Source: a virus
Lineage: Duplodnaviria > Heunggongvirae > Uroviricota > Caudoviricetes
IMG/VR virus record: IMGVR_UViG_3300045988_036280
Span: 1-22,262 of that record
Strand: one strand, 5' to 3'
DNA length: 22,262 bases
The position numbers and the translations under genes are program-made. The notes under the pieces are model-generated. The model was given only the letters and a program-made list of their open reading frames with translations. It was not told the origin of the DNA and searched no databases. Shown piece by piece: positions 1-22,262 of the stretch (positions are counted from its first letter, which is position 1; every line of letters starts with the position of its first letter).

Positions 1-278
1 TCGATGCAAAATACACGAAGGAGTTAGCTGATGCGAAAGCTGAAAATGATGCTCTTCGGCGCAAGCTTGATAATGGTGGCAGGGTGCTCGTCAAAGGAAA
101 ATGCCCTGTGCCATCCTCAGCCGAAACCTCCGGCGCCTCCGGCATGGGCAATGATGCCACCGTCGAACTCTCTCCAGTTGCTGGACGAAACGTTCTCAGT
201 ATCAGATCCGGAATCATCAGCGACCAAACATCACTGAGAGCGCTGCAGGAATACATCAACACGCAGTGCCTGAAATGA
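1..278 (+). CDS. Rz: Rz-type i-spanin, 5'-truncated by the window edge
   Basis: Frame 3 translates to DAKYTKELADAKAENDALR...LQEYINTQCLK, matching the C-terminal half of lambda/P22 Rz as I recall it; stop at 276-278. Confidence 0.85.
   Translation, partial: DAKYTKELADAKAENDALRRKLDNGGRVLVKGKCPVPSSAETSGASGMGNDATVELSPVAGRNVLSIRSGIISDQTSLRALQEYINTQCLK
31..237 (+). CDS. Rz1: Rz1-type o-spanin lipoprotein embedded in the +1 frame of Rz
   Basis: 68 aa ORF with a signal peptide and lipobox (LIMVAGCSS) and a proline-rich stretch (PKPPAPPAW) like lambda Rz1; lies entirely inside Rz in another frame. Confidence 0.8.
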   Translation: MRKLKMMLFGASLIMVAGCSSKENALCHPQPKPPAPPAWAMMPPSNSLQLLDETFSVSDPESSATKHH

Positions 279-286
279 ACAATCAT

Positions 287-311
287 AGCCTCGTAATAGC
301 GAGGCTTTTTA
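287..311 (+). terminator. Intrinsic terminator hairpin downstream of Rz
   Basis: 7 bp stem agcctcg/cgaggct (287-293 with 300-306), 6 nt loop, followed by a T-run to 310. Confidence 0.5.
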
Positions 312-328
312 CTAACCGAGGGTAAATA

Positions 329-517
329 ATGTCATCTCCAATCATGAAGTATTTCGCTTATCAACACCTCCCTGCGCATCTGCAGGAAATAAGTAAGCCA
401 ATCGGTGACCTTGCGACACTGATGGATGAATCACTGCCGGACAGTGCTGAAAAGTCAGCAGGTCTCCGCAAGCTGCTCGAAGCTAAAGATGCGCTGGTGC
501 GAGCAAAGCTGGGGTAA
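329..517 (+). CDS. Hypothetical small protein (62 aa)
   Basis: ORF with GAGGG Shine-Dalgarno 7 nt upstream of the ATG; no family recognised. Confidence 0.45.
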   Translation: MSSPIMKYFAYQHLPAHLQEISKPIGDLATLMDESLPDSAEKSAGLRKLLEAKDALVRAKLG

Positions 518-540
518 GTCATTACAAAGCCTATCTACGG

Positions 541-735
541 GTGGGCTTGATAATGAAACCTGAATTTATTCTGGGCAACCAGTTACGGCAGTACAGCGAA
601 ACAACCCAAGCCAGTAAGTGGGGAAATAACACTGGCAGCCACTGTAAGATGAACCTCCTGCCTTATGGCAAAAAAGATTCTTTGTGGTGGCGGACTGATG
701 GAAAGACATCGGTTATTGCAGAGACCATTCAATGA
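541..735 (+). CDS. Hypothetical small protein (64 aa from GTG at 541, or 60 aa from ATG at 553)
   Basis: ORF only; weak ribosome-binding site; no family recognised. Confidence 0.3.
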   Translation: MGLIMKPEFILGNQLRQYSETTQASKWGNNTGSHCKMNLLPYGKKDSLWWRTDGKTSVIAETIQ

Positions 736-812
736 GTGGTCTCGACAATGGCTTATACCCTGCACGGGATAACTTAACTGATATCCCTTTTAACGGATAA
801 ACGGAGCCAACA

Positions 813-1055
813 ATGGCAGAGATTATTCCCATGACTGAAGAACAGAAATTCCAGTTAGAGATTTACAAACTGGTCATGAACCAGAACGCAGCCGCAGAAG
901 AAGCATTTCAGTTCATTGGCACTGACGAACTGAAGCTTGAGCTATTCAAAATTCACTTTCAGTCAGGCGGCGCTAATTCAGATATCACGACCCGAACTAT
1001 CGAAGCGGTGCGTAAATCGAAGGAAGCGTTAGACCTGTTCACTACCGGAGCATAA
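813..1055 (+). CDS. Hypothetical 80 aa protein upstream of small terminase (same position and size as P22 orf80)
   Basis: ORF with GGAG-containing ribosome-binding site; position and length fit the small ORF that precedes gene 3 in P22-like phages. Confidence 0.5.
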   Translation: MAEIIPMTEEQKFQLEIYKLVMNQNAAAEEAFQFIGTDELKLELFKIHFQSGGANSDITTRTIEAVRKSKEALDLFTTGA

Positions 1056-1134
1056 ACATGGCAACTCAAGGTTTCGACAACCCATCCAAATTCCGCGATG
1101 AATGGGATAAGCAAGCAGAAGGGAAATAATCAAT

Positions 1135-1623
1135 ATGGCAGCACCAAAGGGCAACCGATTTTGGGAGGCCCGCAGTAGTCATGGGCGAAAACCTAAATTC
1201 GAATCGCCTGAGGCGCTGTGGGCTGCTTGTTGTGAATACTTCGAGTGGGCTGATGATAACCCGCTATGGGAGGGTAAGGTATTTTCATATCAGGGAGAAA
1301 TAATTAAGGCTAATGTCCCTAAGATGCGAGCCATGACTATTTCAGGATTGTGTACCTTCCTTGATATCACCAGGCAAACATGGGGAACCTTCCGGTCAAT
1401 GGAAGGCTTTTCTGACGTCACATCACGAGTGGAAGACATCATCTACGACCAGAAATTCTCTGGCGCAGCTGCTGACCTTCTCAACGCTAACATCATCGCC
1501 CGTGATTTGGGCCTCAAAGAGCAGTCGCAAGTTGAAGACGTGACACCTGATAAGGGAGATCGCGATAAGCGGCGCTCTCGTATCAAGGAGCTATTCAACC
1601 GTGGAACTGGACGCGATTCTTGA
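1135..1623 (+). CDS. 3: Terminase small subunit, P22 gp3-like (162 aa)
   Basis: N-terminus [38 protein letters not shown] matches P22 gp3 as recalled; same length; overlaps terL start by 23 nt. Confidence 0.9.
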
Positions 1624-3100
1624 TAACTTGAGCGACGAAGAGCAAATCGAATTGCTCGAGCTACTCGAAGAAGAAGAGAACTACCGTAACACACACCTGC
1701 TATATGAATTTACGCCATACAGCAAACAGCGTGAGTTCATCGACGCCGGGCATGACTATCCAGAGCGCTGTTTTATGGCTGGTAACCAGCTTGGTAAGTC
1801 ATTTACTGGTGCTGCTGAAGTCGCGTTTCACCTTACCGGGCGTTATCCGGGCACAAAAGGCTATCCTGCTGATGGTAAATATGGCGGTGAGTGGAAAGGT
1901 AAGCGTTTTTATGAGCCTGTTGTCTTTTGGATTGGTGGCGAGACAAACGAGACTGTAACCAAAACGACTCAACGCATCCTGTGTGGTCGTATCGAAGAGA
2001 ATGGTGAGCCAGGCTACGGTTCCATACCTAAAGAAGACATCATTAGCTGGAAGAAGTCTCCTTTCTTTCCGAACCTTGTTGATCACCTTCTGGTTAAGCA
2101 TCACACGGCTGATGGCGTTGAAGATGGCATTTCAATCTGCTACTTCAAGCCATACTCGCAAGGTCGTGCTCGCTGGCAGGGTGACACAATCCACGGCGTG
2201 TGGTTTGACGAAGAACCACCATACAGCATTTATGGTGAAGGCCTTACCCGTACCAACAAATACGGGCAATTCTCAATTCTGACGTTTACCCCGCTGATGG
2301 GGATGTCTGACGTTGTTACCAAGTTCCTGAAGAATCCAAGCAAGTCGCAGAAAGTGGTCAACATGACCATCTACGACGCTGAGCACTACACAGACGAACA
2401 GAAAGAGCAAATCATCGCATCTTATCCTGAGCATGAGAGAGAGGCGCGTGCTCGCGGTATTCCTACGATGGGTAGTGGTCGAATCTTCCAGATACCGGAA
2501 GAGACTATTAAGTGTCAGCCGTTCGAGTGTCCTGATCACTTCTACGTAATTGGTGGGATGGATTTCGGATGGGATCACCCGCAGGCGCAGGTTCAGCTTT
2601 GGTGGGATAAGGACGCAGACATAATCTACCTTTCACGCGTTTGGAAGGCGAAAGAAAAGACAGCCGTTCAGGCGTGGGGAGCTGTTAAACCATGGGCGCA
2701 TAAAGTGCCAACCGCATGGCCTCATGACGGAAACCAGCACGAGAAGGGCGGCGGTGAGCAGCTCAAAGGGCAGTATGCGGACGCTGGATTTATGATGTTG
2801 CAGGAGCATGCAACATGGCCTGATGGCGGCAACGCTGTTGAGCCTGGCATCACTGAATTGCGAGACATGATGCTCGACGGTCGCTTCAAAGTATTCAACA
2901 CCTGTGAGCCATTCTTTGAGGAGTTCCGCCTCTATCACCGTGATGAAAACGGGAAAATCGTCAAGCTTAACGACGACGTGCTATCCGCCGTTCGCTATGC
3001 ATACATGATGCGCCGCTTCGCAAAAATGATGCGCGACATCAAAAAGCCAAAAGAGAAAAAGATACCAGCCCCAATCAGGCCCATCGCACGGAGAACTTAA
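1601..3100 (+). CDS. 2: Terminase large subunit, P22 gp2-like (499 aa)
   Basis: Walker A-like [13 protein letters not shown] near the N-terminus; length and sequence match P22 gp2; conserved position after terS. Confidence 0.95.
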
Positions 3101-5266
3101 ATGGCCGACGAAAACAGACTCAATTCCATTCTGTGTAAGTTTGACGCAGACTGGATGGCGAGCGATGAAGCCAGAACCGAGGCGACAAATGACCTGTATT
3201 TTAGCCGAGTGTCGCAATGGGATGACTGGCTATCAAACTACACCACCCTGCAATATCGCGGACAATTCGATGTTGTCCGCCCGGTGGTCAGGAAGTTGGT
3301 CGCAGAGATGCGCCGGAACCCTATCGACGTTCTCTTCCGACCAAAAGACGGTGCTAATCCTGATGCAGCCGATGTGTTGATGGGGATGTATCGTACTGAT
3401 ATGCGCCATAACACGGCAAAAATTGCCGTTAACGTTGGCGTTCGTGAGCAGATAGAGTCCGGCGTTGGTGCATGGCGTCTGGTCACGCAGTACGAAGACA
3501 ACGATCCAACAAGCAACAATCAGGTAATTCGACGCCTGCCAATTCATGAAGCCTGCTCACACGTCATATGGGACGCCAACAGCAAGCAGATGGATAAGAG
3601 CGACGCTAAGCACTGCACGGTGATTAACGCCTTGTCGCGCAATGTCTGGAAAGAGTTCGCAGAGGATTACGGTATTGATCCGGACACCTTGCCATCTTTC
3701 CAGAATCCGAACGATACATGGCTGTTTCCGTGGGTATCGAATGATGTCGTCTACGTCGCTGAGTATTACGAGGTCGAAGAGAAGAAAGAGAAAGTCTTCA
3801 TCTACCGCGACCCGCTGACAGGTGAGCCGGTAAGCTATTACCAGCAGGATATCAAAGACGTCATCGACGACCTGGCTAATCGTGGATTCATTAAGGTAGC
3901 AGAGCGCAAGGTGAAGCGTCGGCGTGTGTATAAGTCGATCATCACCTGTACGCAGATACTGAAAGACCGCGAGAAGATAGCCGGAGAGCATATTCCAATC
4001 GTTCCAGTGTATGGTGAATGGTCATTCGCTGGTGACAAGGAGTGCTACGAAGGAGTGGTAAGGCTGACGAAAGACGGTCAACGCCTTCGTAACATGATCA
4101 TGTCGTTCAACGCCGATATTGTTGCTCGTTCACCGAAGAAGAAACCGACCTTCTTCCCTGAGCAAATCGAAGGCTACGAATACATGTACGGTGGAAATGA
4201 TGACTATCCGTACTATCTGCAGAACAGGACCGATGAAAACGGTAACGACCTGCCGATTGGTCCAATCTCCTACATGGAAAACCCTGAAGTGCCGCAAGCC
4301 AACGCTTACATGCTTGAGGCAGCCACCAACGCAGTGAAAGAGGTGGCTAGTCTTGGCGTGGATGCGCAGGCGGCAAATGGTCAGGTCGCTTTCGATACCG
4401 TCAATCAACTGAACATGCGGGCAGACCTTGAGACATACGTGTTTCAGGATAACCTGGCTACCGCAATGCGACGTGATGGCGAGATTTATGCCTCAATGGT
4501 CAACGATATTTATGACGTTCCTCGCCATGTAACGCTGACTCTTGAAGACGGAAGCGAGAAAGACGTTCAACTCTACGCGCAAGTTGTAGATTACCAGTCC
4601 GGCAATGTGGTCACACTCAACGACATTCGCGGTCGCTATGAGTGCTATACAGACGTTGGACCATCCTTCCAGAGTATGAAGGAACAGAACCGCGCAGAGA
4701 TTCAGGAGTTACTCACCAAGGTTCCACAAGGTACTCCAGAGTTCCAGATGCTGATGCTGCAATACTTCACGCTGCTTGACGGTAAAGGCGTCGAGATGAT
4801 GCGAGAGTACGCGAACAAGCAACTGGTGATGATGGGGCTGAAGAAACCAGAAACACCTGAAGAGATGGAGATGGTACAGCAGGCTCAACAGCAGCCGCAG
4901 CAGCCATCAGCAGAGCAAATTCAGGCGCAGGGTATCCTTCTGCAAGGTCAGGCTGAATTGCTCAAGGCAGAGAACCAACAGGCGCAGATTCAGGTTGAAG
5001 CCGCCAAGGTTGAAGCCCAAAACCAACTCAACGCCGCGAAGATTGCGGAAATCTTCAACAATATGGACCTAGACAAGCAGGCAGAACTGCGTGAGTACCT
5101 CAAGCTCGTAGGTCAATTCCAGCAACAGCGCAGCAAAGATGCTCGTGCTAACGCTGAGCTGCTTCTTAAAGATGCAGACCAGACTCATTCACAACGCATG
5201 GATTTCGCGAATCTTATGCGTCAAGTTCAAATCCCCTCCGGCGGAGTAGCCGAGACACCTCAATAA
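3101..5266 (+). CDS. 1: Portal protein, P22 gp1-like (721 aa)
   Basis: Large ORF directly after terL with GGAGA ribosome-binding site; length close to the P22 portal; Q-rich coiled C-terminal region typical of the P22 portal barrel. Confidence 0.93.
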
Positions 5267-5279
5267 GAGAGAGTTAACC

Positions 5280-6191
5280 ATGGACCAAACCACCGACATT
5301 CAGGCTTCTGAAGAATTAACCCTGCCCGGCAATCATGCAGCGGCATCTGCTGATGGCTTAGTTGTCGATAATGCCAACGACAACGCAGGTCAGGAAGAAG
5401 GCTTCGAGATTGTCCTGAAAGACGATGAGAAACCAAAACAAGACCCGGCAACTAATGCTGAATTTGCCCGTCGCCGCATTGAACGCAAACGCCAGCGTGA
5501 GCTTGAGCAGCAGATGGAAGCGGTTAAGCGTGGAGAGTTGCCGGAGCACCTGCGGGTGAACCCTGAGTTACCAAAACAACCAGACCCTAACGATTATCTT
5601 TCCGAAGATGCACTGGCTAAGTACGACTATGACCAGAGCCGCGCACTGGCTGCCTTCCAGCAGGCAAACAGTGAATGGCAGATCAAGGCTATGGACGCAC
5701 GAAGCCAGGCTGTCGCCGAGCAGGGTCGCAAAACTCAGGAGTTCACCCAGCAATCAGCGCAATACGTCGAGGCAGCCCGTAAGCACTACGACGCAGCGGA
5801 AAAGCTCAATATCCCTGACTATCAGGAGAAAGAGGATGCATTCATGCAACTGGTGCCGCCAGCAGTCGGTGCCGACATCATGCGCCTCTTCCCGGAGAAA
5901 TCCGCCGCTCTCATGTATCACCTTGGTGCTAATCCTGAGAAAACACGCCAGTTGCTGGCGATGGACGGGCAATCCGCGCTGATTGAACTCACTCGACTGT
6001 CAGAACGTTTAACTCTCAAGCCTCGAGCCAAGCCAGTTTCAGAAGCCCCGTTACCTGATGAACCCATTCAGGGACACGCTGTTGCTGCAAATATTTCTGC
6101 GATTGAAAAGCAGATGGAAGCGGCAGCAAACAAAGGGGATGTAGAGACATACCGCAAGCTCAAGGCGCAACTGAATAAAGGAATTCGATAA
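5280..6191 (+). CDS. 8: Scaffolding protein, P22 gp8-like (303 aa)
   Basis: Acidic, helix-rich 303 aa ORF between portal and coat; same length as P22 gp8. Confidence 0.88.
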
Positions 6192-7486
6192 TGGCATTAA
6201 ATGAAGGTCAACTGGTCACGTATGCTCTGGATGAAATCATCGAAACCATCCAGAACCTGACGCCAATGGCGTCTAAAGTGACAAAATACACCCCTCCGGC
6301 AGAATCCATGCAACGTTCAAGCAACACCGTGTGGATGCCTGTTGAGCAGGAAGCGCCAACTCAGACTGGCTGGGATTTAACTGGCAACGCTACCGGTATT
6401 CTGGAACTGTCCGTGAAATGCAACATGGGCGATCCGGATAACGATTTCTTCGAGCTTCGTGCAGATGACCTGCGTGATGAGCGTTCTTACCGTCGCCGCA
6501 TCCAGGCATCAGCTAAAAAACTGGCGAATAACATTGAGTCAGCAATTGCCAAACAGGCAACTGAAATGGGCTCACTTGTTGTTCACGATACCCGAGCAAT
6601 TGGTCCATCTACTGGCCTGTCTGGCTGGGATTTTGTGTCTGATGCAGAGCGCCTGATGTTCTCCCGTGAGCTAAACCGCGATATGGGCATCAGTTACTTC
6701 CTGAACCCTGACGATTACCGCAAAGCAGGCCGCAACCTGGTAGATGGTGACATCTTCGGGCGCGTTCCTGAAGAAGCGTATCGCAACGGTACTATTCAGC
6801 GTCAGATTGCTGGCTTTGATGAAATTCTTCGCTCACCGAAACTTCCGGCAGTTACCAAGTCAACCGCTACTGGTGTAACTGTTTCTGGTGCGCAGAAGTT
6901 TAAGCCGCAGGCATACACCCTTGATACCGATGGTAACAAAGAGAACGTCGACAACCGTGTTGCAACGGTAACCGTATCCTCCACCACCGGATTTAAGCGC
7001 GGCGACAAAATCAGCTTCACTGGTGTGAAATTCCTGTCTCAGATGGCGAAGAACGTGCTGACTGATGATGCTACTTTCTCAATCACCCGTGTGATCGATG
7101 GTACTCACCTCGAAATCACGCCGAAACCGATTGCACTGGATGACGCGTCACTGACAAAAGAAGAGAAGGCTTACGCTAACGTAAACACCTCTCTTGCTGA
7201 TACCACTCCGGTAAATGTTCTGAACGTGGCAACAACCACCGCTAACGTGTTCTGGGCTGATGACTCAATCCGTCTGCTGTCTCAGCCGATCCCGGTAACT
7301 CATGAACTGTTTGCTGGCATGAAAACTTCTTCCTTCAGCATTCCTGGTATTGGTGTTAACGGCATCTTCGCAACGCAGGGTGATATCAACACTCTGTCTG
7401 GTAAGTGCCGTATTGCTGTGTGGTATTCAGCATGTGCTGTACGACCAGAGGCAATTGGTGTTGGTCTGCCTAACCAGACTGCGTGA
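6191..7486 (+). CDS. 5: Major coat protein, P22 gp5-like (431 aa)
   Basis: Start overlaps the scaffold stop (TAATG); length and position match the P22 coat protein. Confidence 0.93.
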
Positions 7487-7492
7487 TAACCA

Positions 7493-7518: not shown

Positions 7519-7530
7519 CTGGAGACAAGC

Positions 7531-8339: not shown

Positions 8340-8374
8340 AAGTACATGAAAAATCGAAACTTTAAGGAGTAGAT

Positions 8375-12323: not shown

Positions 12324-12332
12324 GGGGTAATC

Positions 12333-13721: not shown

Positions 13722-15718
13722 TGGCTAAAGCATGGAAAGATGTTATCGCCTCTCCACAGTATCAGGCGTTAGCACCAGAACAAAAAGCGCAGGCTCAGGA
13801 GCAATACTTCAATGAAGTCGTGGCCCCGCAAGCCGGAGAAAATGCAGAGCAGGCTAAGCAAGCTTTCTATGCTGCCTATCCATTGCCATCTGTGCAGCAA
13901 GTGGAGACACAGCAACCAGTAGCACAGCAACAACCACAGCAAAGTGGATTTATGTCTGATCTTGGCGAAGCAGTAAAAGAGACTGGTCGCGGACTGGTGC
14001 AGGCTGGCGTGAACGTGGCAAACATACCTGCATCAGTTGCCGATGCTGTAACAAGCGCGGCGGCTTGGGCTGGCGGTAAACTCGGCATTGGCGATGGTAC
14101 ATATCAACCAGCGCCACGAGTAACAACGCAGGGATTAGAGCAGGACTTTGGCCTTCAGCAAGGCGCGCTGACTCCACAAACGACAGAGGGAAGGGTATTT
14201 GCTGAAGCATTGCCTTACCTCACTACTGCTGGCGTTGAGAGAGCGGCAGCACAGGCACCAACACTTGCTGGTCGAATTGCTCAGGGGGCAACTCGCCTTC
14301 TAGCAGAAAACGCAGTTGGATCACTTGCTGCAAATAGTGCGAAAGATGATGCGGAAGCACTCGCCACCGATTTAGGCGTTGGTGTACTTGCTGGCGGTGC
14401 TATTAACGCTGCTGGACGTGGATTAGGTGCTGCTTATCGTGGCGTTCGTGGTGCTATCGCACCAGAAGCGCAACAGGCTATCAGATTTGCAGAGCGTGAA
14501 GGAGTTCCTCTGCACACCACAGACCTGTTACAACCAACTTCCCGCGTCGGAAAAATGGCGCAGACTACAGCAGAAAATATCCCTCTGGCTGGAACAAGCG
14601 GAATGAGAGCAACGCAACAGGAAGCGAGAAGCCAGTTGGTGCAGAGATTTGCTGATAAATTCGGGGAGTATGATCCAGCGGTTGTTATTGACAGCCTTAA
14701 AGCGAAAACATCAGGAATTCGTCGTGCCGCCGGTAATCGACTGGAGCAGGTTCAGAATGCTATGGCTGGAGTAAACATTCAGCCTGCGCGAGCAATTCAG
14801 CAGATTGATACAGAAATATCTAACCTGCAGAAGCTTGGTAAGGTGGCTGATAACGAGACAATTTCAAAACTTCAGTCATATCGTGATGAGCTTGTTCGCA
14901 ATGCTGGCCCTGAAGGTCCGGTAAATCTGGATTTGAAGCAATTAAGCGACCTGCGCAGTCAGTTCAGAATGGACGTGAAGGGTGAGCGACCAGTGTTACC
15001 AAACCGTTCCGATGCTGCCATTCAGCGCGTTTACAAGGCGATGACCGACGATATCAATGGTGCCATTGGTCAGAATCTTGGCAACGATACTCTCCGTAAA
15101 TATCAGCAGGCCAATGCCGTCTACGCTGACGAAGCGGCGAAACTAAAGAATACCAGGCTGAAGAATGTTCTCATGAAAGGCGACCTGACGCCGGAAGTTG
15201 TCAACAACATGCTATTCAGCAAGAACAAATCGGAAATTAAGACGCTGTATAACTCAGTTGGTCGTGTTGGCAGGGTGCAAATGCGCAATGGCATCATTGG
15301 AAAGGCGATGGAGAAATCTGGCGGATCCCCTGACCAGTTCCTTCGGCAGCTTAACATCCTGCAAAACCAGACTGGCATCACATTTAAGGGGCAGGACGCT
15401 GCTTATCTGAAAGGATTGAAAAATTACCTTCAGTCCACTCAGCAGGCAGCAAAAGCGGCAGTAACAACACCAACAGGGCAGCAAACCATCCCGTTCATTA
15501 TCGGGTATGGGACGGCAATGAACCCGGCGACAACTGGCGCAGCAGTAAGCTACGGACTTCTTACTCGCGCCTATGAGAGCGAACCATTCAGAAATGCAAT
15601 GCTCCGAATGGCAAACACCCCACGCGGATCAACAGCGTTTGAGAAAGCCATGCAGCAGGCGCAAAAGGCCATTAACGCCCTGACTCAGGGTGCCAAGTCT
15701 GATGCGTTGTCAGAATAG
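13721..15718 (+). CDS. 16: Ejection protein gp16-like (665 aa)
   Basis: ATGA overlap with the gp20 stop; last gene of the P22-type ejection-protein trio; longer than P22 gp16 (609 aa as recalled). Confidence 0.8.
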   Translation: MAKAWKDVIASPQYQALAPEQKAQAQEQYFNEVVAPQAGENAEQAKQAFYAAYPLPSVQQVETQQPVAQQQPQQSGFMSDLGEAVKETGRGLVQAGVNVANIPASVADAVTSAAAWAGGKLGIGDGTYQPAPRVTTQGLEQDFGLQQGALTPQTTEGRVFAEALPYLTTAGVERAAAQAPTLAGRIAQGATRLLAENAVGSLAANSAKDDAEALATDLGVGVLAGGAINAAGRGLGAAYRGVRGAIAPEAQQAIRFAEREGVPLHTTDLLQPTSRVGKMAQTTAENIPLAGTSGMRATQQEARSQLVQRFADKFGEYDPAVVIDSLKAKTSGIRRAAGNRLEQVQNAMAGVNIQPARAIQQIDTEISNLQKLGKVADNETISKLQSYRDELVRNAGPEGPVNLDLKQLSDLRSQFRMDVKGERPVLPNRSDAAIQRVYKAMTDDINGAIGQNLGNDTLRKYQQANAVYADEAAKLKNTRLKNVLMKGDLTPEVVNNMLFSKNKSEIKTLYNSVGRVGRVQMRNGIIGKAMEKSGGSPDQFLRQLNILQNQTGITFKGQDAAYLKGLKNYLQSTQQAAKAAVTTPTGQQTIPFIIGYGTAMNPATTGAAVSYGLLTRAYESEPFRNAMLRMANTPRGSTAFEKAMQQAQKAINALTQGAKSDALSE

Positions 15719-15787
15719 CTTCGCAAACACCAGGAACGTGCAAAAACCAAATATGTAGAACGCAATATTCAGCATATCTCTTTGCAT
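15710..15787 (-). CDS. Candidate 25 aa hydrophobic micro-protein (MQRDMLNIAFYIFGFCTFLVFAKLF) downstream of mnt
   Basis: Below the ORF-track length cutoff; found by hand translation. GGAGGA Shine-Dalgarno 3 nt before the ATG; single predicted transmembrane helix; co-directional with mnt; occupies the position of sieA in P22. Confidence 0.2.
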   Translation of the reverse strand: MQRDMLNIAFYIFGFCTFLVFAKLF

Positions 15788-15807
15788 AAATCCTCCGTAA
15801 CTGATGG

Positions 15808-16101
15808 TTAGCTGCTGTCTTTTTTATATAGCTCTTTGAGCGTATCAAAGACAATTTTCTTAACCATATCGGATTGTTGTTCTGCCATACGCTCTGCATC
15901 GTCAATGTAAACTGATGCAGAGTTTTGTTTATCCAGTGATTCTTCAATCGCTGCAATTATCTCTGAGTTCAGAGACCTGTTATTCATCTTCGCACGCTGC
16001 TTAATTTTCGCGTGGAGTTCATGCGGAAGTCTCAAGTGAAACTGCGCCTCGTCGTATTTGCTGTACATCCTTGATGCCTCACCAATTGGGTGGAATGGCA
16101 T
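15808..16101 (-). CDS. mnt: Mnt-like ribbon-helix-helix repressor (97 aa; alternative start at 16068 gives 86 aa)
   Basis: C-terminal DDAERMAEQQSDMVKKIVFDTLKELYKK aligns with P22 Mnt NDAERLADEQSELVKKMVFDTLKDLYKK; N-terminal region aligns with the Mnt DNA-binding strand. Confidence 0.8.
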   Translation of the reverse strand: MPFHPIGEASRMYSKYDEAQFHLRLPHELHAKIKQRAKMNNRSLNSEIIAAIEESLDKQNSASVYIDDAERMAEQQSDMVKKIVFDTLKELYKKDSS

Positions 16102-16189
16102 CGTAACTTACTGGATAAATACTCAATAGTACCATTTCGGTATGCAATCACATCATGGTTGCATCATATCATTCGTCTGGAGCAATGAA
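16102..16189. promoter_or_regulatory. Divergent mnt-tailspike intergenic control region with a candidate operator palindrome
   Basis: Inverted repeat ATGCAA-N11-TTGCAT at 16142-16164 and a smaller TACC-N5-GGTA; position corresponds to the Pant/Pmnt/Omnt region of P22 immI. Confidence 0.3.
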
Positions 16190-18007
16190 ATGTCAGATAT
16201 CACCGCAAATATTGTGGTAAGCATGCCTTCGCAACTCTTCACTATGGCGCGTTCTTTTAAAGCCGTAGCCAATGGCAAAATTTATATCGGAAAAATTGAC
16301 ACTGACCCGGTAAATACTGAAAACCAGATTCAGGTTTATGTAGAGAATGAAGACGGATCTCACGTCCCTGTTTCTCAGCCAATTGTGATCAATGCTGCCG
16401 GATATCCTGTGTACAACGGGCAGATTGCCAAATTTGTAACTGAGCAAGGCCATTCAATGGCTGTATACGATGCGTATGGTGCGCAGCAGTTCTATTTTCC
16501 TAATGTGTTGAAGTACGACCCTGACCAGGGAATTATCAGGTTAAAAGAAGAAATTGCGAAAGATGATGGAGAGAAATATATCGGAATATGCCCTGACGTT
16601 TCTACGCTCAGAACAATTGAGCCATCATTCGTCGGGCAAAATATAACTGTTCGTGGATACTACTCTGACACACCCGGGCTTGGGGGAGGAACGTTTATAG
16701 CCTTTTCCAGTTCTGAAGCTGACGATGGTGTGAATATTTTTGTTACCCCCGGAGGTAAGCGATGGAAGAGAGCAGGAAGCCACATCGATATTCCGGTAGA
16801 GAACGGTGGCATGATGACATCATGTACGGCTGAGCAAAACAGTGAAGCCTTTGAACGCCTGACTGCATGCCTTCCATATGAAGGAGGTACGCTCAGACTC
16901 AATGGATTTTACGATATTAAGTATGGCGCTATCGTGCCTCCACGTGTCACGCTGGAGGGGTGCGGTATGGATTCCTGTGGATTAATTAAAACAGGTAACG
17001 ATATTAAAACCGTTCCGGATCGCATGTGGCAGGGTGTACCACACAGCTTCTCCAAAGACTTTATTGTTGCGGTAGATATGGATAGTGACACATCAGGTGA
17101 TTTAAGCGGGACACAAACAAGAAGCACCAGAATAATTGGATTGAGTATTCTAAATACTGCGCCCAATCCTTGTGATTACGGGGTATATAGCGCTATCAGT
17201 TACAATGTGCGCCTTCAGGACCTGTATATTCATAGGGTGAAAACCGGTTATCGCACTAGTGATAGTTGGTTGCAGACATGGGAAAACATTACTATTCAGG
17301 ATGTCGTTACTGGAGTTAAAATCGAAGCAGGTGGAACTACATATAATTTAAACAATATTTATGTGAAAACATGTTCAGGTGTTGGATTCGATCTTAAAAA
17401 TCCGACATATAGCACAATGACAGGATGTGCTGTGGATTTTGCAAATGGAACTGCATATAAATTCGTGGATTGCACCGGGATTGTGTTAGATGGTTGTGGG
17501 TGCGAAGAAATAACAGGGACACAGATATATGCTCAGGGCTCTAGAATTTGTATTAATGGTTTTAGGGGGGTAAATCCAAAGAAAGGAGATGCAGAATCTT
17601 TTATACTTGATTCATCTGTAATTAATTTAAACTCATCTTATCTTCCTGATTATGTTGGAGGTGGTACAGATAAATATACCAAGATAAATGCGGCGGTGAT
17701 AAATTCGAATAACTCTATATTTCCTGACCATGTAAACAATAAAATTACATGGGGCAGTGTTCAATCCATAATGAATATTCATGATGAAAGAGGTGGATAC
17801 TCAGTAACAGGAAATTCAACGTATACTGTTCTTGGGAGGGTTGAGGGAGGGGTGATTACAATACTCTCTCTACTGCCACCTACGGGAGATGCTAATTTTT
17901 ACCCAATTGGAACAAGGTGGGAGTTACTGTATCCATCGGCTGTAGGTCCGTACAAATGGATTTTGTTAGGGGATAAAATTTGGCATGTTGCAGGATCAAC
18001 ATCGTAA
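16190..18007 (+). CDS. 9: Tailspike: P22 gp9-like head-binding domain joined to an unrelated receptor-binding domain (605 aa)
   Basis: From the ATG at 16190, [42 protein letters not shown]...VLKYDPDQ matches the P22 gp9 N-terminus; beyond about residue 115 the sequence is unrelated and AT-rich. Confidence 0.9.
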
Positions 18008-18014
18008 AAATTAA

Positions 18015-18042
18015 TTGCCAAATTAAAATATACAGCTATTAT
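18015..18042 (+). promoter_or_regulatory. Candidate sigma70 promoter for the acetyltransferase gene (TTGCCA, 16 nt spacer, TATTAT)
   Basis: -35 at 18015-18020 and -10 at 18037-18042, in the tailspike-oac intergenic region. Confidence 0.35.
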
Positions 18043-18063
18043 TTTGCACAATACTATGCATAG

Positions 18064-19047
18064 GTGCAAAAAATGGATGAGAAAGTAATCAATATTAGGG
18101 CCGTGGCTGCTATTATGGTTGTAGTTCTTCATGTTAATTCACAGTATTTTCATGATGTTACAAGCTACTGGACTGTTTTCGCTTTGATTGGTTCAGCAAT
18201 GCGGCCCTGCGTGCCTATTTTTATAATGATTTCAGGGTATTTATTGATAGGAAGAGTTGGCAGTTCAATTGATTTTATGAAGAGAAGAATATCAAGACTT
18301 CTTCCTCCAATATTATTTTGGGGGGTGTTTTATGTTTTTTTTGTATCAGTTGTTGGAAACGCACAAGTTTCAATAAATTCACTCATATCAATATTAATTG
18401 ATCCTCCAATGTTTCATTTATGGTATCTTTATTTGATTGTTGGCGTTTATCTCATGATGCCTATTTTATCCTCTTGGTATTTGTCGGCGTCATTTGGTGA
18501 TAAGATTTTTTATATTTCGCTTTGGTTTGCATGCCTGCTTGTTGCTCAGTTTGGTCTTGGTGTTGAAATTATAAATAGATATTATCTTGGTCAATTTTCA
18601 ACATACTCGTTTTATTTAATAGTGGGTGCTTTTGTTAAGGAGGTTTCATTTAAGTGCAATGTAAGATGGTCTGTTCCGAGCATGGTTTATATTCTAATTA
18701 CATTACTAATAACAACTCTTACGATTTATGACTGTTATAATAATGGAGCGCCGTCAGAGAAGTACTATGAATACACAAATCCAATGGTTGTTCTTCAATC
18801 AATATTTTTATTCATGGCGTTAATTAAGCTTAATAAATCAAATTGGTTTACAAAAGTTGTTTCAAATTATTCACTTGGAGTTTATTGTGTTCATGTTGCG
18901 ATAATATTACTAATATTCCCTACAATAAAGACAACAATAGATAATGCATTCATTTCATACTTTGCATCTATTTCTTTAGTTCTGATCTCATCAGTTATAA
19001 TTAGCTCAATTATCAGATTGGTTCCTTTTATAAAAAGTGCATCGTGA
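18064..19047 (+). CDS. oac: Acyltransferase family 3 integral membrane protein, O-antigen acetyltransferase (Oac-like), about 325 aa
   Basis: Many predicted transmembrane segments; N-terminal IRAVAAIMVVVLHV motif (conserved R and H of acyltransferase_3); AT-rich; sits between tailspike and attP as oac does in Sf6. Probable start is the ATG at 18073. Confidence 0.8.
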   Translation: MQKMDEKVINIRAVAAIMVVVLHVNSQYFHDVTSYWTVFALIGSAMRPCVPIFIMISGYLLIGRVGSSIDFMKRRISRLLPPILFWGVFYVFFVSVVGNAQVSINSLISILIDPPMFHLWYLYLIVGVYLMMPILSSWYLSASFGDKIFYISLWFACLLVAQFGLGVEIINRYYLGQFSTYSFYLIVGAFVKEVSFKCNVRWSVPSMVYILITLLITTLTIYDCYNNGAPSEKYYEYTNPMVVLQSIFLFMALIKLNKSNWFTKVVSNYSLGVYCVHVAIILLIFPTIKTTIDNAFISYFASISLVLISSVIISSIIRLVPFIKSAS

Positions 19048-19129
19048 GTGCTTTAGTTGCATGAGACAAAACTGAGACACAGAAAGCTTTGCACTGGATT
19101 GCAAGGCTTTGTGCTCTTCGATAGTGGTT

Positions 19130-19152
19130 AAGGTGGATCACTCCACCTTTTT
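19130..19152 (+). terminator. Intrinsic terminator downstream of the acetyltransferase gene
   Basis: 8 bp stem aaggtgga/tccacctt with loop tcac, followed by a T-run. Confidence 0.55.
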
Positions 19153-19243
19153 ATCAATCCAGTCCGCCCACCATTGCATCATTTCTCTGCGCTTATCGAG
19201 ATACTGAGCATGGTTGTAAATTCAGATAACCCAGTATGTTGAC

Positions 19244-19283
19244 AAAAAATTAGCGCAAGAAGACAAAAATCACCTTGCGCTAA
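19244..19283 (-). terminator. Lambda tI/sib-like hairpin (int retroregulation element and terminator for leftward transcripts)
   Basis: 10 bp inverted repeat ttagcgcaag/cttgcgctaa (19250-19259 with 19274-19283) with a 14 nt loop, followed on the minus strand by a T-run (19244-19249); matches the lambda sib region as recalled. Confidence 0.5.
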
Positions 19284-19520
19284 TGCTCTGCTACAGGTCA
19301 CTAATACTATCTAAGTAGTTGATTCATAGTGACTGGATATGTTGTGTTTTGTCGCATTATGTAGTCTATTTTTTAGACTAAAGATATTGTAATGCATTGA
19401 TATTAATGGTTTTTAATGTTTCACGTTCAGCTTTTTTATACTAAGTTGGCATTATAAAAAAGCATTGCTTATCAATTTGTTGCAACGAACAGGTCACTAT
19501 CAGTCAAAATAAAATCATTA
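19280..19520. other. attP: Lambda-type attP (P arm, 15 bp core at 19430-19444, P' arm)
   Basis: Exact lambda core GCTTTTTTATACTAA; P' arm AGTTGGCATTATAAAAAAGCATTGCTTATCAATTTGTTGCAACGAACAGGTCACTATCAGTCAAAATAAAATCATTATTTG matches lambda as recalled; arm-type sites CAGGTCACTAAT and CAGGTCACTAT; P arm slightly diverged from lambda. Confidence 0.85.
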
Positions 19521-20588
19521 TTTGATTTCAATTTTGTCCCACTCCCTGCCTCTGTCATCACGATACTGTGATGCCATGGTGTCCGACTTATGCCCGAGAA
19601 GATGTTGAGCAAACTTATCGCTTATCTGCTTCTCATAGAGTCTTGCAGACAAACTGCGCAACTCGTGAAAGGTAGGCGGATCCCCTTCGAAGGAAAGACC
19701 TGATGCTTTTCGTGCGCGCATAAAATACCTTGATACTGTGCCGGATGAAAGCGGTTCACGACGAGTAGATGCAATTATGGTTTCTCCGCCAAGAATCTCT
19801 TTGCATTTATCAAGTGTTTCCTTCATTGATATCCCGAGAGCATCAACATGCAATGCTGTTGGGATGGCAATTTTTACGCCTGTTTTGCTTTGCTCGACAT
19901 AAAGATATCCATCTACGATATCAGACCACTTCATTTCGCATAAATCACCAACTCGTTGCCCGGTAACAACAGCCAGTTCCATTGCAAGTCTGAGCCAACA
20001 TGGTGATGATTCTGCTGCTTGATAAATTTTCAGGTATTCGTCAGCTGTAAGTCTTGATCTCCTTACCTCTGATTTTGCTGCGCGAGTGGCAGCGACCGGG
20101 TTTGTTGTTATATGGCCTTCAGCTATTGCCTCTCGGAATGCATCGCTCAGTGTTGATCTGATTAACTTGGCTGACGCCGCCTTGCCATCGTCTATGTATC
20201 CATTGAGCATTGCCGCAATTTCTTTTGTGGTGATGTCTTCAAGTGGAGCATCAGGCAGACCCCTCCTTATTGCTTTAATTTTGCTCATGTAATTTATGAG
20301 TGTCTTCTGCTTGATTCCTCTGCTGGCGAGGATTTTTTCGTAGCGATCAAGCCATGAATGTAACGTAACAGAATTATCACTGTTGATTCTTGCTGTCAGA
20401 GGCTTGTGTTTGGGTCCTGAGAATAACTCAATGTTGGCCTGTATAGCTTCAGTGATTGCTATCCTTCTGTCTCTGCCTAATCCGAACTCTTTACCCGTCC
20501 TTGGGTCCCTGTAGCAGTAATATCCATTGTTTCTTATATAAAGATTAGGGGGTAAATCCCGGCGCTCATGACTTCGCCTTCTTCCCAT
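19518..20588 (-). CDS. int: Lambda integrase (tyrosine recombinase, 356 aa)
   Basis: MGRRRSHERRDLPPNLYIRNNGYYCYRDPRTGKEFGLGRDRR...DKIEIK is essentially lambda Int as recalled; stop codon lies in the P' arm. Confidence 0.97.
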   Translation of the reverse strand: MGRRRSHERRDLPPNLYIRNNGYYCYRDPRTGKEFGLGRDRRIAITEAIQANIELFSGPKHKPLTARINSDNSVTLHSWLDRYEKILASRGIKQKTLINYMSKIKAIRRGLPDAPLEDITTKEIAAMLNGYIDDGKAASAKLIRSTLSDAFREAIAEGHITTNPVAATRAAKSEVRRSRLTADEYLKIYQAAESSPCWLRLAMELAVVTGQRVGDLCEMKWSDIVDGYLYVEQSKTGVKIAIPTALHVDALGISMKETLDKCKEILGGETIIASTRREPLSSGTVSRYFMRARKASGLSFEGDPPTFHELRSLSARLYEKQISDKFAQHLLGHKSDTMASQYRDDRGREWDKIEIK

Positions 20589-20784
20589 TTCTGATCCTCT
20601 TCAAAAGGCTACCTGTTACTGGTCGATTTAAGTCAACCTTTACCGCTGATTCGTGGAACAGATACTCTCTTCCGTCCTTAACCGGAGGAGGGAATATCCT
20701 GCATTCGCGTACCCATCGACGAACTGTTTCAAGGCTTCTTGGGCGTCGCTGGCGAGCGTTCCACTCCTGAAGTGTCAAGTACAT
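20566..20784 (-). CDS. xis: Lambda excisionase (72 aa)
   Basis: MYLTLQEWNARQRRPRSLETVRRWVRECRIFPPPVKDGREYLFHESAVKVDL matches lambda Xis; 23 nt overlap with the int start, as in lambda. Confidence 0.95.
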   Translation of the reverse strand: MYLTLQEWNARQRRPRSLETVRRWVRECRIFPPPVKDGREYLFHESAVKVDLNRPVTGSLLKRIRNGKKAKS

Positions 20785-20807
20785 CGCAAAGTCTCCGCAA
20801 TTACACG

Positions 20808-20835
20808 CAAGAAAAAACCGCCATCAGGCGGTTTT
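20808..20835 (-). terminator. Hairpin plus T-run between the orf55-like gene and xis (possible attenuator for leftward transcription)
   Basis: 9 bp stem aaaaccgcc/ggcggtttt (20814-20822 with 20827-20835), loop atca; six T on the minus strand at 20808-20813; the orf55 stop codon lies in the loop. Confidence 0.35.
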
Positions 20836-20991
20836 GTGTTCTTTCAGTTCTTCAATTCGAATATTGGTTACGTCTGCATGTGCTATCTGCGCCCATATCA
20901 TCAAGTGGTTATAGCAGTCGTTGAAGTCCTCTGCTTCGATAACCCTGTTGAATGGTTCTCCATTCCATTCACCTGTGACTCGGAAGTGCAT
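20824..20991 (-). CDS. Small ORF (55 aa, MHFRVTGEWNGEPFNRVIEAEDFNDCYNHLMIWAQIAHADVTNIRIEELKEHKTA), lambda orf55-like by position and size
   Basis: Below the ORF-track cutoff; found by hand. GGAGA Shine-Dalgarno before the ATG; same position (just upstream of xis on the leftward transcript) and length as lambda orf55. Confidence 0.45.
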   Translation of the reverse strand: MHFRVTGEWNGEPFNRVIEAEDFNDCYNHLMIWAQIAHADVTNIRIEELKEHKTA

Positions 20992-21091
20992 TTATCATCT
21001 CCATAAAACAAAACCCGCCGTAGCGAGTTCAGATAAAAGAAATCCCCGCGAGTGCGAGGATTGTTATTCACCTTTGACGGCAAGTTGCAGG

Positions 21092-21631
21092 TTAGCCACG
21101 GTTAACCTCCTGCGGTGGTTCCGGTAGTGGCATCCAATTGATTACATCGCATTCAGGGATGCTGATATCATCACCAAGCCACCCTTGACCTTCAGACCAG
21201 CATTGCACGTAATACCCGTATTTTGTGTTCACTACGCACCACTGCGCGTCGTTCGGCATTCGCTCACTACAGCTTATCCAACCATCCGGAGTTACCGGCG
21301 CTGGCTGGGCGGTATAAAGCGGTGTTATATCTGCCCGAAAATTACATGCTTTATGCAGCCGCACCCACCGTTCGACTTCTGCTTTGTCAGAATACATACC
21401 AGTGAACGTGTTATATTCACGGTCAATTTGCGTGAATGTTACCTTCCACGCCACCGGCTCTGCTTCCAGCGATGCCAGTGCAATCCGTGCCAGTTCCAGT
21501 TCCCGTTCAACCATCTCAAGAACAACTTTGCAGTCCTCACCTTCTTTGCTAGCACGTCCTTTCAAGTCTTCCAGATAACTAACGCTTTCGCGTGCATGGG
21601 AGATTAACTGTTCTTTGGTAAAAGTTGTCAT
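21092..21631 (-). CDS. Ea22-like protein with a DUF551-like C-terminal domain (179 aa from the ATG at 21631; ORF is open to 21721)
   Basis: Coiled-coil middle region; C-terminus DGWISCSERMPNDAQWCVVNTKYGYYVQCWSEGQGWLGDDISIPECDVINWMPLPEPP resembles DUF551; the ATG at 21631 follows an AAGGAAAG ribosome-binding site and abuts the upstream ORF stop. Confidence 0.6.
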   Translation of the reverse strand: MTTFTKEQLISHARESVSYLEDLKGRASKEGEDCKVVLEMVERELELARIALASLEAEPVAWKVTFTQIDREYNTFTGMYSDKAEVERWVRLHKACNFRADITPLYTAQPAPVTPDGWISCSERMPNDAQWCVVNTKYGYYVQCWSEGQGWLGDDISIPECDVINWMPLPEPPQEVNRG

Positions 21632-21632
21632 A

Positions 21633-21851
21633 TCAGCTTTCCTTGTACGGGTTAATTTTATTGTGTAGTGCGTTGAACGACGCCCATACCACGTCGTTAT
21701 ACAATTCAATAACTGGCTCAATTATTTTCCCGATTGCCCAGACAAAAATTAGCGGGGATATCGGTATCATCAACACGATAAACAGAATGAGAAACATGAT
21801 TTCTATTGTCCTGCTTCTTCGCGGATATTCTTTTCTGAATAATGTAGGCAC
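21633..21851 (-). CDS. Small hydrophobic early-left ORF (72 aa from GTG, 54 aa from the internal ATG), lambda orf61-like by position
   Basis: ORF only; predicted membrane helix (MFLILFIVLMIPISPLIFVWAIG); translationally coupled to the Ea22-like gene. Confidence 0.35.
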   Translation of the reverse strand: MPTLFRKEYPRRSRTIEIMFLILFIVLMIPISPLIFVWAIGKIIEPVIELYNDVVWASFNALHNKINPYKES

Positions 21852-21852
21852 A

Positions 21853-22041
21853 TCACTCTCCTTTAGTGCGCAAGTGGTTTTTCCAGCGGTTTTGCGCCGC
21901 GCTGGGTTTGTTAAGAAAACACATCACGATATCAGCCGTGTTTGTGAACAATCCCATTCTGCGGTTACTGAGTTTTAACCATTGCTGGACGCCGCGCGCG
22001 TTTCTACAGGTCAAAAGAATTTTTGCTTTACGGTTTTTCAT
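21853..22041 (-). CDS. Small early-left ORF (62 aa), lambda orf63-like by position
   Basis: ORF only; tightly packed with neighbouring ORFs on the leftward transcript. Confidence 0.35.
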   Translation of the reverse strand: MKNRKAKILLTCRNARGVQQWLKLSNRRMGLFTNTADIVMCFLNKPSAAQNRWKNHLRTKGE

Positions 22042-22220
22042 CGTTTTGTTCTCCTGCGTTTGCGTTTCTTTGCTGCTCGTCGTGCCGCTGCAATACCGGT
22101 ATGGCGGCGCTTTGGTGCCGGGATGATGTTGTCAGCCATCAGGACATGTGGCTTTGCAATTAGCGCAGGAGCCCAAAAACGAGTCGGGTACGTTAACAAG
22201 CCGAAAAATGCCACACGCAT
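22038..22220 (-). CDS. Small basic early-left ORF (60 aa, C-terminus KKRKRRRTKR), lambda orf60a-like by position
   Basis: GGGAGG Shine-Dalgarno before the ATG; start overlaps the upstream ORF stop (TAATG). Confidence 0.4.
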   Translation of the reverse strand: MRVAFFGLLTYPTRFWAPALIAKPHVLMADNIIPAPKRRHTGIAAARRAAKKRKRRRTKR

Positions 22221-22262
22221 TACTCACCTCCCTTACCCTGAAGCATGGCGGCGCGATAGGCG
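22220..22262 (-). CDS. 3' end of an upstream minus-strand gene truncated by the window edge (ends ...AYRAAMLQGKGGE)
   Basis: Open frame running to the window edge with its stop overlapping the orf60a-like start; does not match the lambda Exo C-terminus as I recall it, so identity is unknown. Confidence 0.3.
   Translation of the reverse strand, partial: AYRAAMLQGKGGE

Follow-up and report, generated by a model that had tools for sequence, protein, structure and literature searches.

The 22,262-nucleotide stretch of viral DNA in IMG/VR record IMGVR_UViG_3300045988_036280 (positions 1 to 22,262, called the window throughout) carries packaging and virion genes of the phage P22 kind and, towards its right end, an attachment site (attP), integrase (Int) and excisionase (Xis) of the phage lambda kind. 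It raises the question of whether these two modules belong to one phage, where they were joined, and whether the DNA is in phage form or part of an integrated prophage. Mosaicism of P22-like phages, their exchange of DNA with other lambdoid phages and the variety of their integrases have been documented (PMC2629481; PMC11990801). In this paper we compare the window with the complete sequences of P22, Sf6, HK620, CUS-3 and IME10 and with labelled public loci and contigs from assemblies and IMG/VR (given below as L-numbers). The conclusion, to which we assign a probability of about 90%, is that the window represents approximately 57% of the genome of a temperate podophage of E. coli, P22-like (Lederbergvirus-type) and present here in the attP form, circular or virion, with a genome that is a patchwork of circulating lambdoid modules. 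The central observation of a preliminary description of this DNA, that a P22-like virion module is joined to a lambda-type attP-int-xis module, is supported, and this claim of mosaicism survived every test that was run.

Positions 27528-29361 of lambda (J02459) align without gaps with window 19234-21067 at 96.5% nucleotide identity over 1.83 kb, so the integrase region is indeed lambda-like at the nucleotide level. The lambda core, GCTTTTTTATACTAA, occurs a single time in the window, at 19430-19444, and had no match in 100 shuffles; it is exact, as had been claimed, and the P' arm, which had been called lambda-like, is free of mismatches. The core-type region has 1 mismatch in 34 positions. 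The sib/tI-like hairpin of the preliminary description is also identical to its lambda counterpart, and its RNA folds stably (-30.5 kcal/mol, z = -5.97). Int and Xis had been described as near-identical to those of lambda, and they differ by 4 of 356 and 1 of 72 residues, respectively. The Int changes are H59P, E134D, H164P and I248V, and the catalytic residues R212, K235, H308, R311, H333 and Y342 are all kept. Window 20771-20830, the PI/cII-site region at the 5' end of xis, is identical to lambda.

Lysogens of the same type are present in public genomes. Loci L011 and L014 are 99.8% identical to window 11173-19448, with an identical P arm, and diverge after the core into CTTGAGCGAAACG..., the B' arm; this attR side reads P-O-B' and continues into ybhB-bioABFCD-uvrB. 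On the attL side the exact Int protein adjoins ybhC (ybhC, then B-O-P'-int), and L019 and L023 (both 100% identical to 19430-22262) and L022 (99.97%) all pass at the core into the B arm, followed by ybhC. The switch in homology falls precisely at the 15-bp core. Chromosome OZ038676.1 carries both L014 and L022, with their cores 39,179 bp apart, which gives a prophage of approximately 39.2 kb. By sequence, the prophage order is ybhC - B-O-P' - int - xis ... tailspike - acyltransferase - P-O-B' - ybhB-bioA. From these lysogen junctions, and from the independent documentation of each junction in the window, we take the window to be in the attP form, as excised or phage DNA, and to belong to a prophage type whose integration site is lambda attB, we regard its attP-int-xis module as functional, and we consider an assembly chimera unlikely. 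The preliminary description had also favored the phage or excised form over a prophage, which agrees with the way lysogens split at the core into ybhB-bio and ybhC flanks, and the check that it proposed, for use of the gal-bio attB in a lysogen, came out positive, both attR and attL being present in isolate genomes.

Most differences between the P arm of the window and that of lambda, approximately 20 positions, cluster at 19351-19417 in the spacers around X2, F and H2, and these match phage 434 and Escherichia phage JEP4. The P1 and P2 arm-type sequences and H1, X1 and X2 are retained, and H2 conforms in its core to WATCAANNNNTTR, the consensus for integration host factor (IHF); the attP site names and this consensus follow the established lambda literature. 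We read the P arm as the 434/JEP4 variant, with protein-binding cores retained and spacers diverged, and therefore at least two allelic forms of the P arm work with essentially the same Int. The attP had been described as intact with both arms, and both are indeed present, but the P arm is that of 434 and JEP4 and not lambda's. It could be argued from the 25 differences in 153 P-arm positions, and from four Int substitutions of which two replace His with Pro, that the lambda-like module is a non-functional relic in which integration is blocked by the diverged arm or by an inactivated Int. This is very improbable, since the exact P arm and the exact Int protein are found in lysogens, at attR and attL of lambda attB, the arm-type sites, H1, X1, X2 and the IHF core of H2 are kept, the catalytic residues are intact, and the variant P arm is common to phage 434. 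Phage 434 uses the attachment site of lambda.

The point at which the lambda-type module was joined to the rest of the phage is marked by a fossil, the last 27 codons of an integrase of the IntS/HK620 (argW) type, with an in-frame stop upstream. Three prophages with intact IntS-type integrases share the tailspike-acyltransferase cassette of the window at 98.7-99.6%, over 16176-19221 in L009 and L010 and over 17087-19221 in L016; in L009 and L010 the integrase adjoins the yfdC-mlaA, argW neighborhood, as it does in VE-T9. The match to the VE-T9 prophage, whose acyltransferase is a different one, is limited to the proximal tailspike (16238-17510, 94%) and 19059-19221 (98%). In all four the homology to the window ends exactly at 19221. 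Because IntS-type homology stops there and lambda homology starts at 19234, the crossover is placed within 19222-19233, inside the interval of 19153-19243 to which the junction had previously been assigned. The same junction is found in JEP4, which is collinear with the window from 19061, and in phage 434, from 19069. The integrase fossil is common to the siphovirus 434 and the P22-like phages JEP4, Gally and HZ41, and because of this distribution the junction appears to be old and to circulate between phage morphotypes.

These records also bear on whether a metagenome assembler joined a P22-like phage to a lambda-like phage through shared sequence. The window apparently comes from a metagenomic viral contig, no single record spans all of it, and mosaic phages share many near-identical segments that are able to mislead assemblers. 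Against this, isolate genomes L011 and L014 have acyltransferase, IntS fossil, sib, P arm and core in one uninterrupted stretch at 99.8% identity, and JEP4 is likewise contiguous over 19061-21068; with 434, these records speak for the window in the doubt that had been raised over 19050-19300. L019 and L023 reproduce the other half, 19430-22262, at 100% identity; L042 (window 1109-10533), L037, E. coli ET729 and 25 IMG/VR contigs run unbroken through the junctions of an HNH gene in the virion module; and Sf6 spans 8906-13022. We give a chimera hardly any weight. A stretch of integrated or decayed prophage has a negligible chance of being the right description. Near-identical sequences do occur as prophages, among them L013, reduced by heavy deletion, at the same site, but true lysogens break at the core into ybhB or ybhC flanks, whereas in the window the P arm, core and P' arm are contiguous and no host gene lies within the 22 kb. 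Locus L013 (GCA_027275985.1, 2756-11376) belongs to the same prophage type at lambda attB and retains attL with a truncated int, a gp20 fragment, mnt, part of the tailspike, the acyltransferase and attR.

Several points weigh against the identification of the window as the phage form of one P22-like genome. The whole 22 kb is in no single public record, the best of 50,697 phage records covering 61% of it, and none of the complete E. coli genomes in RefSeq goes far beyond 80% coverage of 1-19444. The linkage of the left half (P22/IME10-type) with the right half (Sf6-type plus tailspike) depends on a metagenome-assembled viral contig; window 2876-16208 is 100% identical over 13.3 kb to L034, IMG/VR contig IMGVR_UViG_3300045988_011633 of 35.8 kb, of which the window is probably a piece. 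The P-arm differences from lambda count here as well, and the functions given to the acyltransferase, tailspike and HNH proteins are deduced from family membership alone. Megablast of the whole window against the same 50,697 records matched only P22-like (Lederbergvirus) phages of E. coli and Salmonella, with IME10, CurroJimenez_Bas106, Dewey and APC_JM3.2 at the top (approximately 95-97% identity). The GC content of the window is 48%, a gathering-threshold scan of the whole window with Rfam found no family, and ARAGORN found no tRNA in it. The features of the window are listed in Table 1.

Table 1. Features of the 22,262-nucleotide window, with positions, strand and the matches on which each assignment is based (aa, amino acid identity; nt, nucleotide identity).
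Feature	Position	Strand	Evidence
Rz1-like o-spanin lipoprotein	31-237	+	phrog_3198 E = 3e-26; 93% aa to HK620 Rz1 region
P22 orf80 / HK620 hkbM homologue, conserved small gene upstream of terS	813-1055	+	99-100% aa to P22, Sf6, HK620; phrog_571
Small terminase (TerS), P22 gp3 type	1135-1623	+	Pfam GP3_package E = 4e-30; 80.9% aa to P22 gp3 (162 residues, all); 99% to IME10
Large terminase (TerL), P22 gp2 type	1601-3100	+	Pfam Terminase_6N, 6C; 92% aa to P22
Portal	3101-5266	+	Pfam P22_portal E = 7e-162; 78% to P22, 33% to Sf6
Scaffolding protein	5280-6191	+	Pfam Phage-scaffold E = 2e-179; 85% to P22
Coat protein	6191-7486	+	Pfam P22_CoatProtein E = 5e-166; 73% to P22, 98% to IME10; no BLAST match in Sf6
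gp4 head-tail adaptor	7733-8233	+	Pfam P22_Tail-4 E = 2e-58; 58% to P22, 98% to IME10
Truncated original gene-10 5' end (copy c1)	8234-8326	+	31 canonical codons; 95-97% nt to Sf6, HK620, IME10, CUS-3 gene-10 5' ends
HNH homing-endonuclease gene (NUMOD4 + HNH_3), putative	8375-8959	+	PF13392 HNH_3 1.9e-10; PF07463 NUMOD4 1.3e-8; phrog_59 4e-53
Gene 10 (head closure)	8907-10325	+	Pfam Phage_stabilise E = 4e-298
Tail needle gp26, Sf6-type C-terminal knob	10325-11173	+	Pfam Phage_tail_NK E = 2e-116; 98% aa to Sf6 gene 9 protein
gp14	11173-11628	+	Pfam DUF2824; 99% to Sf6, 93% to P22
Ejection protein gp7	11631-12323	+	Pfam P22_gp7 E = 5e-133; 98% to Sf6, 82% to P22
Ejection protein gp20	12333-13721	+	Pfam Inj_translocase E = 1e-77; 90% to Sf6 over residues 1-253, 69% to P22
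Ejection protein gp16, Sf6 type	13721-15718	+	99% aa to Sf6 gene 13 protein, 33% to P22 gp16
Mnt-like Arc/ribbon-helix-helix repressor	15808-16068	-	Pfam Arc 3e-14, Repressor_Mnt 3e-14; 48% to P22 Mnt, 97% to IME10
Tailspike, 605 residues	16190-18007	+	Pfam Head_binding 5e-65, residues 1-113; Beta_helix just 0.0025
Acyltransferase_3 membrane protein	18073-19047	+	Pfam Acyl_transf_3 PF01757 E = 3e-40, residues 10-316
Fossil, last 27 codons of IntS/HK620-type (argW) integrase	19141-19221	-	tblastn, HK620 Int residues 359-385: 92.6%, E = 1.5e-12
Recombination breakpoint, IntS-type remnant / lambda-homologous DNA	19222-19233	.	IntS-type homology to 19221, lambda from 19234
tI terminator / sib retroregulation hairpin	19241-19288	-	0/48 mismatches to lambda 27535-27582
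attP P arm	19277-19429	+	25/153 mismatches to lambda; nearest JEP4, 434
attP core (overlap region O), strand-exchange site	19430-19444	+	0/15 mismatches to lambda
attP P' arm (C', H', P'1-P'3)	19445-19522	+	0/78 mismatches to lambda
Lambda-type tyrosine integrase	19518-20588	-	Pfam Arm-DNA-bind_1 (PF09003), Phage_integrase (PF00589); 98.3% nt to lambda; 352/356 residues identical
Excisionase Xis	20566-20784	-	Pfam Exc 4e-41; 71/72 identical to lambda, G59S
Lambda orf55 homologue	20824-20991	-	89% aa to lambda; phrog_676
Terminator-like hairpin, right end of lambda homology	21041-21067	-	Terminator scan (hairpin 21041-21062); alignment diverges after 21067
DUF551 protein, 179 residues	21092-21631	-	Pfam DUF551 4e-11; 179-residue product called in L019, L022
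DUF4014 gene	21633-21851	-	Pfam DUF4014 9e-25
orf62	21853-22041	-	Small ea-region gene
orf60	22038-22220	-	Small ea-region gene

A full packaging and virion set in P22 order occupies 1135-18007 and is followed by an O-antigen-type acyltransferase gene and the lambda-type attP, int, xis and orf55; the left end of the window falls within the lysis cassette. The order terS-terL-portal-scaffold-coat-gp4-gp10-gp26-gp14-gp7-gp20-gp16-(immI)-tailspike was found, with one extra gene, the HNH gene, between gp4 and gp10. Scores for PF16510, PF11651, PF09306, PF11650, PF11134, PF25688, PF16928 and PF09008, which cover the portal, coat, scaffold, gp4, gp10, ejection and tailspike set, are far over the cut-offs. 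All of the genes listed in the preliminary description are therefore present, by Pfam or, for gp16, by identity to Sf6, but their order is interrupted by the HNH gene at 8375-8959 and by a duplicated gene-10 5' end. The likely start of gp4 is M22 of the open reading frame that opens at 7670, and a 166-residue product is called in L011.

The description of this module as P22-type in order and sequence holds for the order and for the sequence of the proximal half. From TerS to gp4 nucleotide identity to P22 is 76%, and amino acid identities are 58-92% (gp4 is lowest at 58%, the others 73-92%). The terminase and coat genes of Sf6, HK620 and CUS-3 are unrelated to those of the window, with no match to the large terminase in Sf6 or HK620, and the portal is just 33% identical. 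By sequence, then, TerS to gp4 (1135-8233) belongs to the P22/IME10 lineage. The distal half is Sf6-type, with window 8906-13022 and 13690-15788 at 94-97% nucleotide identity to Sf6; the 3' part of gene 20, between 13022 and 13690, had no match in Sf6 or in IME10. A knob of the Sf6 type (PF16532) is present on the tail needle, whereas P22 gp26 is without it and aligns over residues 1-137 only (59%). The gp16 assignment is made because of the 99% identity to the Sf6 gene 13 protein; gp16 had no match in the Pfam scan of the window proteins, and PF26808 (Phage_P22_gp16) is recorded for a 665-residue product that L011 and L014, with 99.8% DNA identity to this part of the window, encode at the corresponding place. 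The virion module is thus itself mosaic, with gp10 to gp16 and the needle knob of the Sf6 type.

Only one element of the window is mildly unusual, the HNH cassette in gene 10 together with the stub and the replacement 5' end beside it. Gene 10 normally begins straight after the gp4 stop codon. In the window a 31-codon stub at this place (copy c1) is cut off by the cassette, with stop codons TAATAA. The inserted DNA is 8327-8906, 580 bp with 40.7% GC, and the 3' end of its HNH gene overlaps the new start of gene 10, which begins again at 8907 with its own ATG. The first 40 codons of the new gene 10 (copy c2, 8907-9026) are diverged, 31 of the 40 being altered, mostly synonymously, and nucleotide identity to the canonical sequence is 60-62%; from codon 41 there is an abrupt return to approximately 95% identity with canonical alleles, including that of Sf6. 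A group I intron was considered as an explanation of the interruption and rejected, as no splicing is needed when the downstream copy begins with an ATG of its own and has the full set of 31 duplicated codons; the Rfam gathering scan gave no group I intron signal around the HNH gene.

The cassette is absent from P22, Sf6, HK620, CUS-3 and IME10. Of 915 complete E. coli genomes with a match to the gp4/gp10 query region, 18 carry it, and the GTDB species-representative genomes, searched for exact copies of the diverged gene-10 start, contained none. The diverged start occurs in 25 informative IMG/VR contigs, every one of which also has the stub and the HNH gene, and neither a diverged 5' end without the HNH gene nor an HNH gene without the stub was seen among them. 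In these contigs the cassette is 98.8-100% identical and the c1 stub 85-100%, and the gp4 type of the window occurs in just 5. The element is therefore a presence/absence polymorphism at one conserved locus, better conserved than its flanks, with an altered putative target adjoining. Salmonella phage UPF_BP1 (KX776161) has the same three-part structure at the same place, namely a truncated gene-10 5' end, an HNH gene and a diverged gene-10 start. It is 97.3% identical to window 8233-9000 overall and approximately 99% over the cassette proper, and it differs in its Salmonella host, in a left flank that is 55-75% identical and in the rest of the virion module, approximately 82% identical overall. 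Homing-endonuclease insertions in P22-like virion clusters have been noted previously (PMC5261728).

The pattern fits intron-less homing with a cleavage-resistant donor tract, in which both the activity of the HNH protein and its target are inferred. Tentatively, at somewhat less than even odds, we suggest that 8327-8906 is a self-contained homing element that landed in an essential structural gene at gene-10 codon 31, left a dead stub, and brought a replacement start with 40 diverged codons that would restore the gene and remove the target of the enzyme. In L011 (GCA_032525525.1, 1521-2407) a related HNH enzyme, with 55% amino acid identity and an N-terminal 47 residues that are nearly identical, lies between gp10 and gp26. 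There the diverged tract is the last approximately 340 nucleotides of gene 10 (48-70% nucleotide identity), mirroring the pattern in the window.

To the right of gp16, the immI region (15719-16189) has a Mnt-like repressor alone, with no arc, ant or sieA; an 86-residue Mnt-like product is called in L011 and L014. The divergent control region of the Mnt-like gene directly abuts the start of the tailspike. The tailspike had been credited with a P22-type head-binding domain, which is present, while the remainder is an unrelated module. Matches in PDB, to the Sf6 and P22 tailspikes, cover residues 1-148 only, and the protein is best described as a P22/Sf6-type head-binding domain with an apparently exchanged, beta-helix-like receptor-binding module. 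The DNA of the receptor-binding part, 16530-18007, had no close match in the 50,697 phage records except for a partial one, a 509-nucleotide stretch 74% identical to tail proteins of large Salmonella phages of the Ackermannviridae type (STML-13-1, BRM 13313). The C-terminal approximately 165 residues differ from those of the otherwise similar VE-T9 prophage tailspike.

The acyltransferase gene, between the tailspike and the att/int region, has 32% GC compared with 48% for the window, and a promoter-like site lies upstream at 18015-18042 (promoter scan 10/12). In public assemblies 389 blocks encode exactly this protein, in every case after a P22-like tailspike, and in two contexts: one with an adjoining IntS-type integrase, and one followed by approximately 490 bp and then ybhB-bioA-bioB-bioF-bioC-bioD-uvrB. 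By family and position it is probably an O-antigen acetyltransferase, a lysogenic conversion moron. A likeness to Sf6 Oac was rejected by tblastn, in which the protein had no match in the Sf6 genome at E <= 1e-3. Downstream, the stop of the integrase fossil overlaps with a plus-strand hairpin at 19130-19152, AAGGTGGA-tcac-TCCACCTT and then TTTTT. This hairpin is absent from the terminator-scan list and could be a terminator of late or acyltransferase transcription. The tailspike-acyltransferase cassette (16176-19221) is found with two integrases, in L009, L010 and L016 on the one hand and in L011-L015 on the other, at 98.7-99.8% identity, and therefore at two chromosomal sites, argW and gal-bio.

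At its right end the lambda homology stops at 21067, just short of ea8.5 (lambda 29374-29655), and the reported absence of this gene is correct. The reported presence of lambda early-left genes is not, for the DNA to the right of 21067 is not lambda's: over 20990-22262 the P22-like phages Dewey and CurroJimenez share 99.7% identity with the window, and the 933W type approximately 87%, and the genes there are generic lambdoid ea genes. The gene that had been called Ea22-like with a DUF551-type C-terminus has the DUF551 domain (4e-11), but the label Ea22-like, given to 21092-21721, was rejected; there is no PF13935 (Ead_Ea22) match even at E <= 1, and BLASTP against lambda Ea22 gave E = 0.17 over 27 residues. 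A true Ead_Ea22 (PF13935) gene is found further upstream in lysogens, beyond the window. The small ea-region genes at 21633-22220 match phrog_1380 and phrog_13831. NCBIfam had no match for the tailspike, acyltransferase, HNH, gp16 or ea genes.

Among known phages, JEP4 (MT740315, Lederbergvirus) has the same lambda-type module, 97.2% identical over window 19061-21068, and shares the IntS fossil, sib/tI, variant P arm, core, int and xis (Int 99% and Xis 100% amino acid identity); a P22-like phage with the very same int module is thus already in GenBank. It differs in having another tailspike receptor-binding domain and no acyltransferase, and its match to the DUF551 protein is weak (45% over the C-terminal domain). 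In its tailspike-to-early-left stretch, the part that was compared, the matches outside the int module are at just approximately 80%. Lambda has the core, P' arm and tI/sib identical to those of the window and the ybhC/ybhB integration site in common, and phage 434 has the P-arm variant and, from 19069 on, the IntS fossil; both differ as siphoviruses with unrelated virion genes, and the b-region, ea8.5 and ea22 of lambda are missing from the window. IME10 is 96% identical in nucleotides and 98-99% in amino acids from TerS to gp4, and 97% in Mnt, but IME10, Dewey and CurroJimenez have an IntS/CPS-53-type integrase, no gene-10 HNH cassette, a P22-type needle without knob and other tailspikes. 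Sf6 resembles the window in the needle knob (98%), gp16 (99%) and tailspike head-binding domain (92.7% nucleotide identity), and it also has an acyltransferase after the tailspike, although its oac is on the opposite strand and has no BLAST match to the acyltransferase of the window. Sf6 differs further in unrelated terminase and coat genes, another tailspike catalytic domain and an IntS-type integrase.

The patchwork, as we read it, has these parts. Packaging, head and gp4 genes are of the P22/IME10 lineage. The HNH cassette is inserted at gene-10 codon 31 and carries its own diverged codons 1-40, which restore gene 10. Sf6-type gp10 to gp16 and tail-needle knob come next, with a Mnt-only remnant of immI, a tailspike with an exchanged receptor-binding module and a low-GC moron, probably for O-antigen acetylation. 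A lambda/434-type module (sib/tI, attP, int, xis, orf55) has taken the place of an IntS/HK620-type integrase, through a crossover 27 codons upstream of the stop of that gene. As the sequences show, Int recombination at the 15-bp core inserts the phage between ybhC and ybhB (lambda attB, gal-bio). Judging from lambda biology, Int and IHF would use the arm and core sites, with Xis and Fis directing excision. In the attP form sib lies downstream of int, and int transcripts reading through from PL would be degraded via RNase III; in the prophage sib would be moved to the other end, which would allow expression of Int and Xis on induction. As predicted from its family and position, the acyltransferase would be expressed from its own promoter in the lysogen, modify the O-antigen and block superinfection by phages with the same receptor, and the receptor-binding module of the tailspike would set host range.

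The finding is correct in its main lines but ordinary; the arrangement belongs to well-described kinds and is already common in public genomes. It carries little weight as a discovery, as exchange of P22-like and lambda-like modules is classical lambdoid mosaicism (PMC2629481; PMC11990801) and GenBank phages (JEP4, 434), as well as many prophages of E. coli, already contain this very junction. What the window offers is a clean worked example, with a breakpoint mapped to 12 bp beside a 27-codon fossil of the displaced integrase, and a case in which one tailspike-acyltransferase cassette, for host range and serotype conversion, travels with two integrases and so sits at two sites, argW and gal-bio. 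If the homing interpretation of the gene-10 cassette is true, a small family of homing endonucleases would be sweeping the virion modules of P22-like phages of E. coli and Salmonella, and homing would drive localized replacement of sequence in a gene whose conservation is otherwise 94-97%. The gene-10 cassette is a tractable system for work on the spread of homing endonucleases in structural genes of temperate phages.

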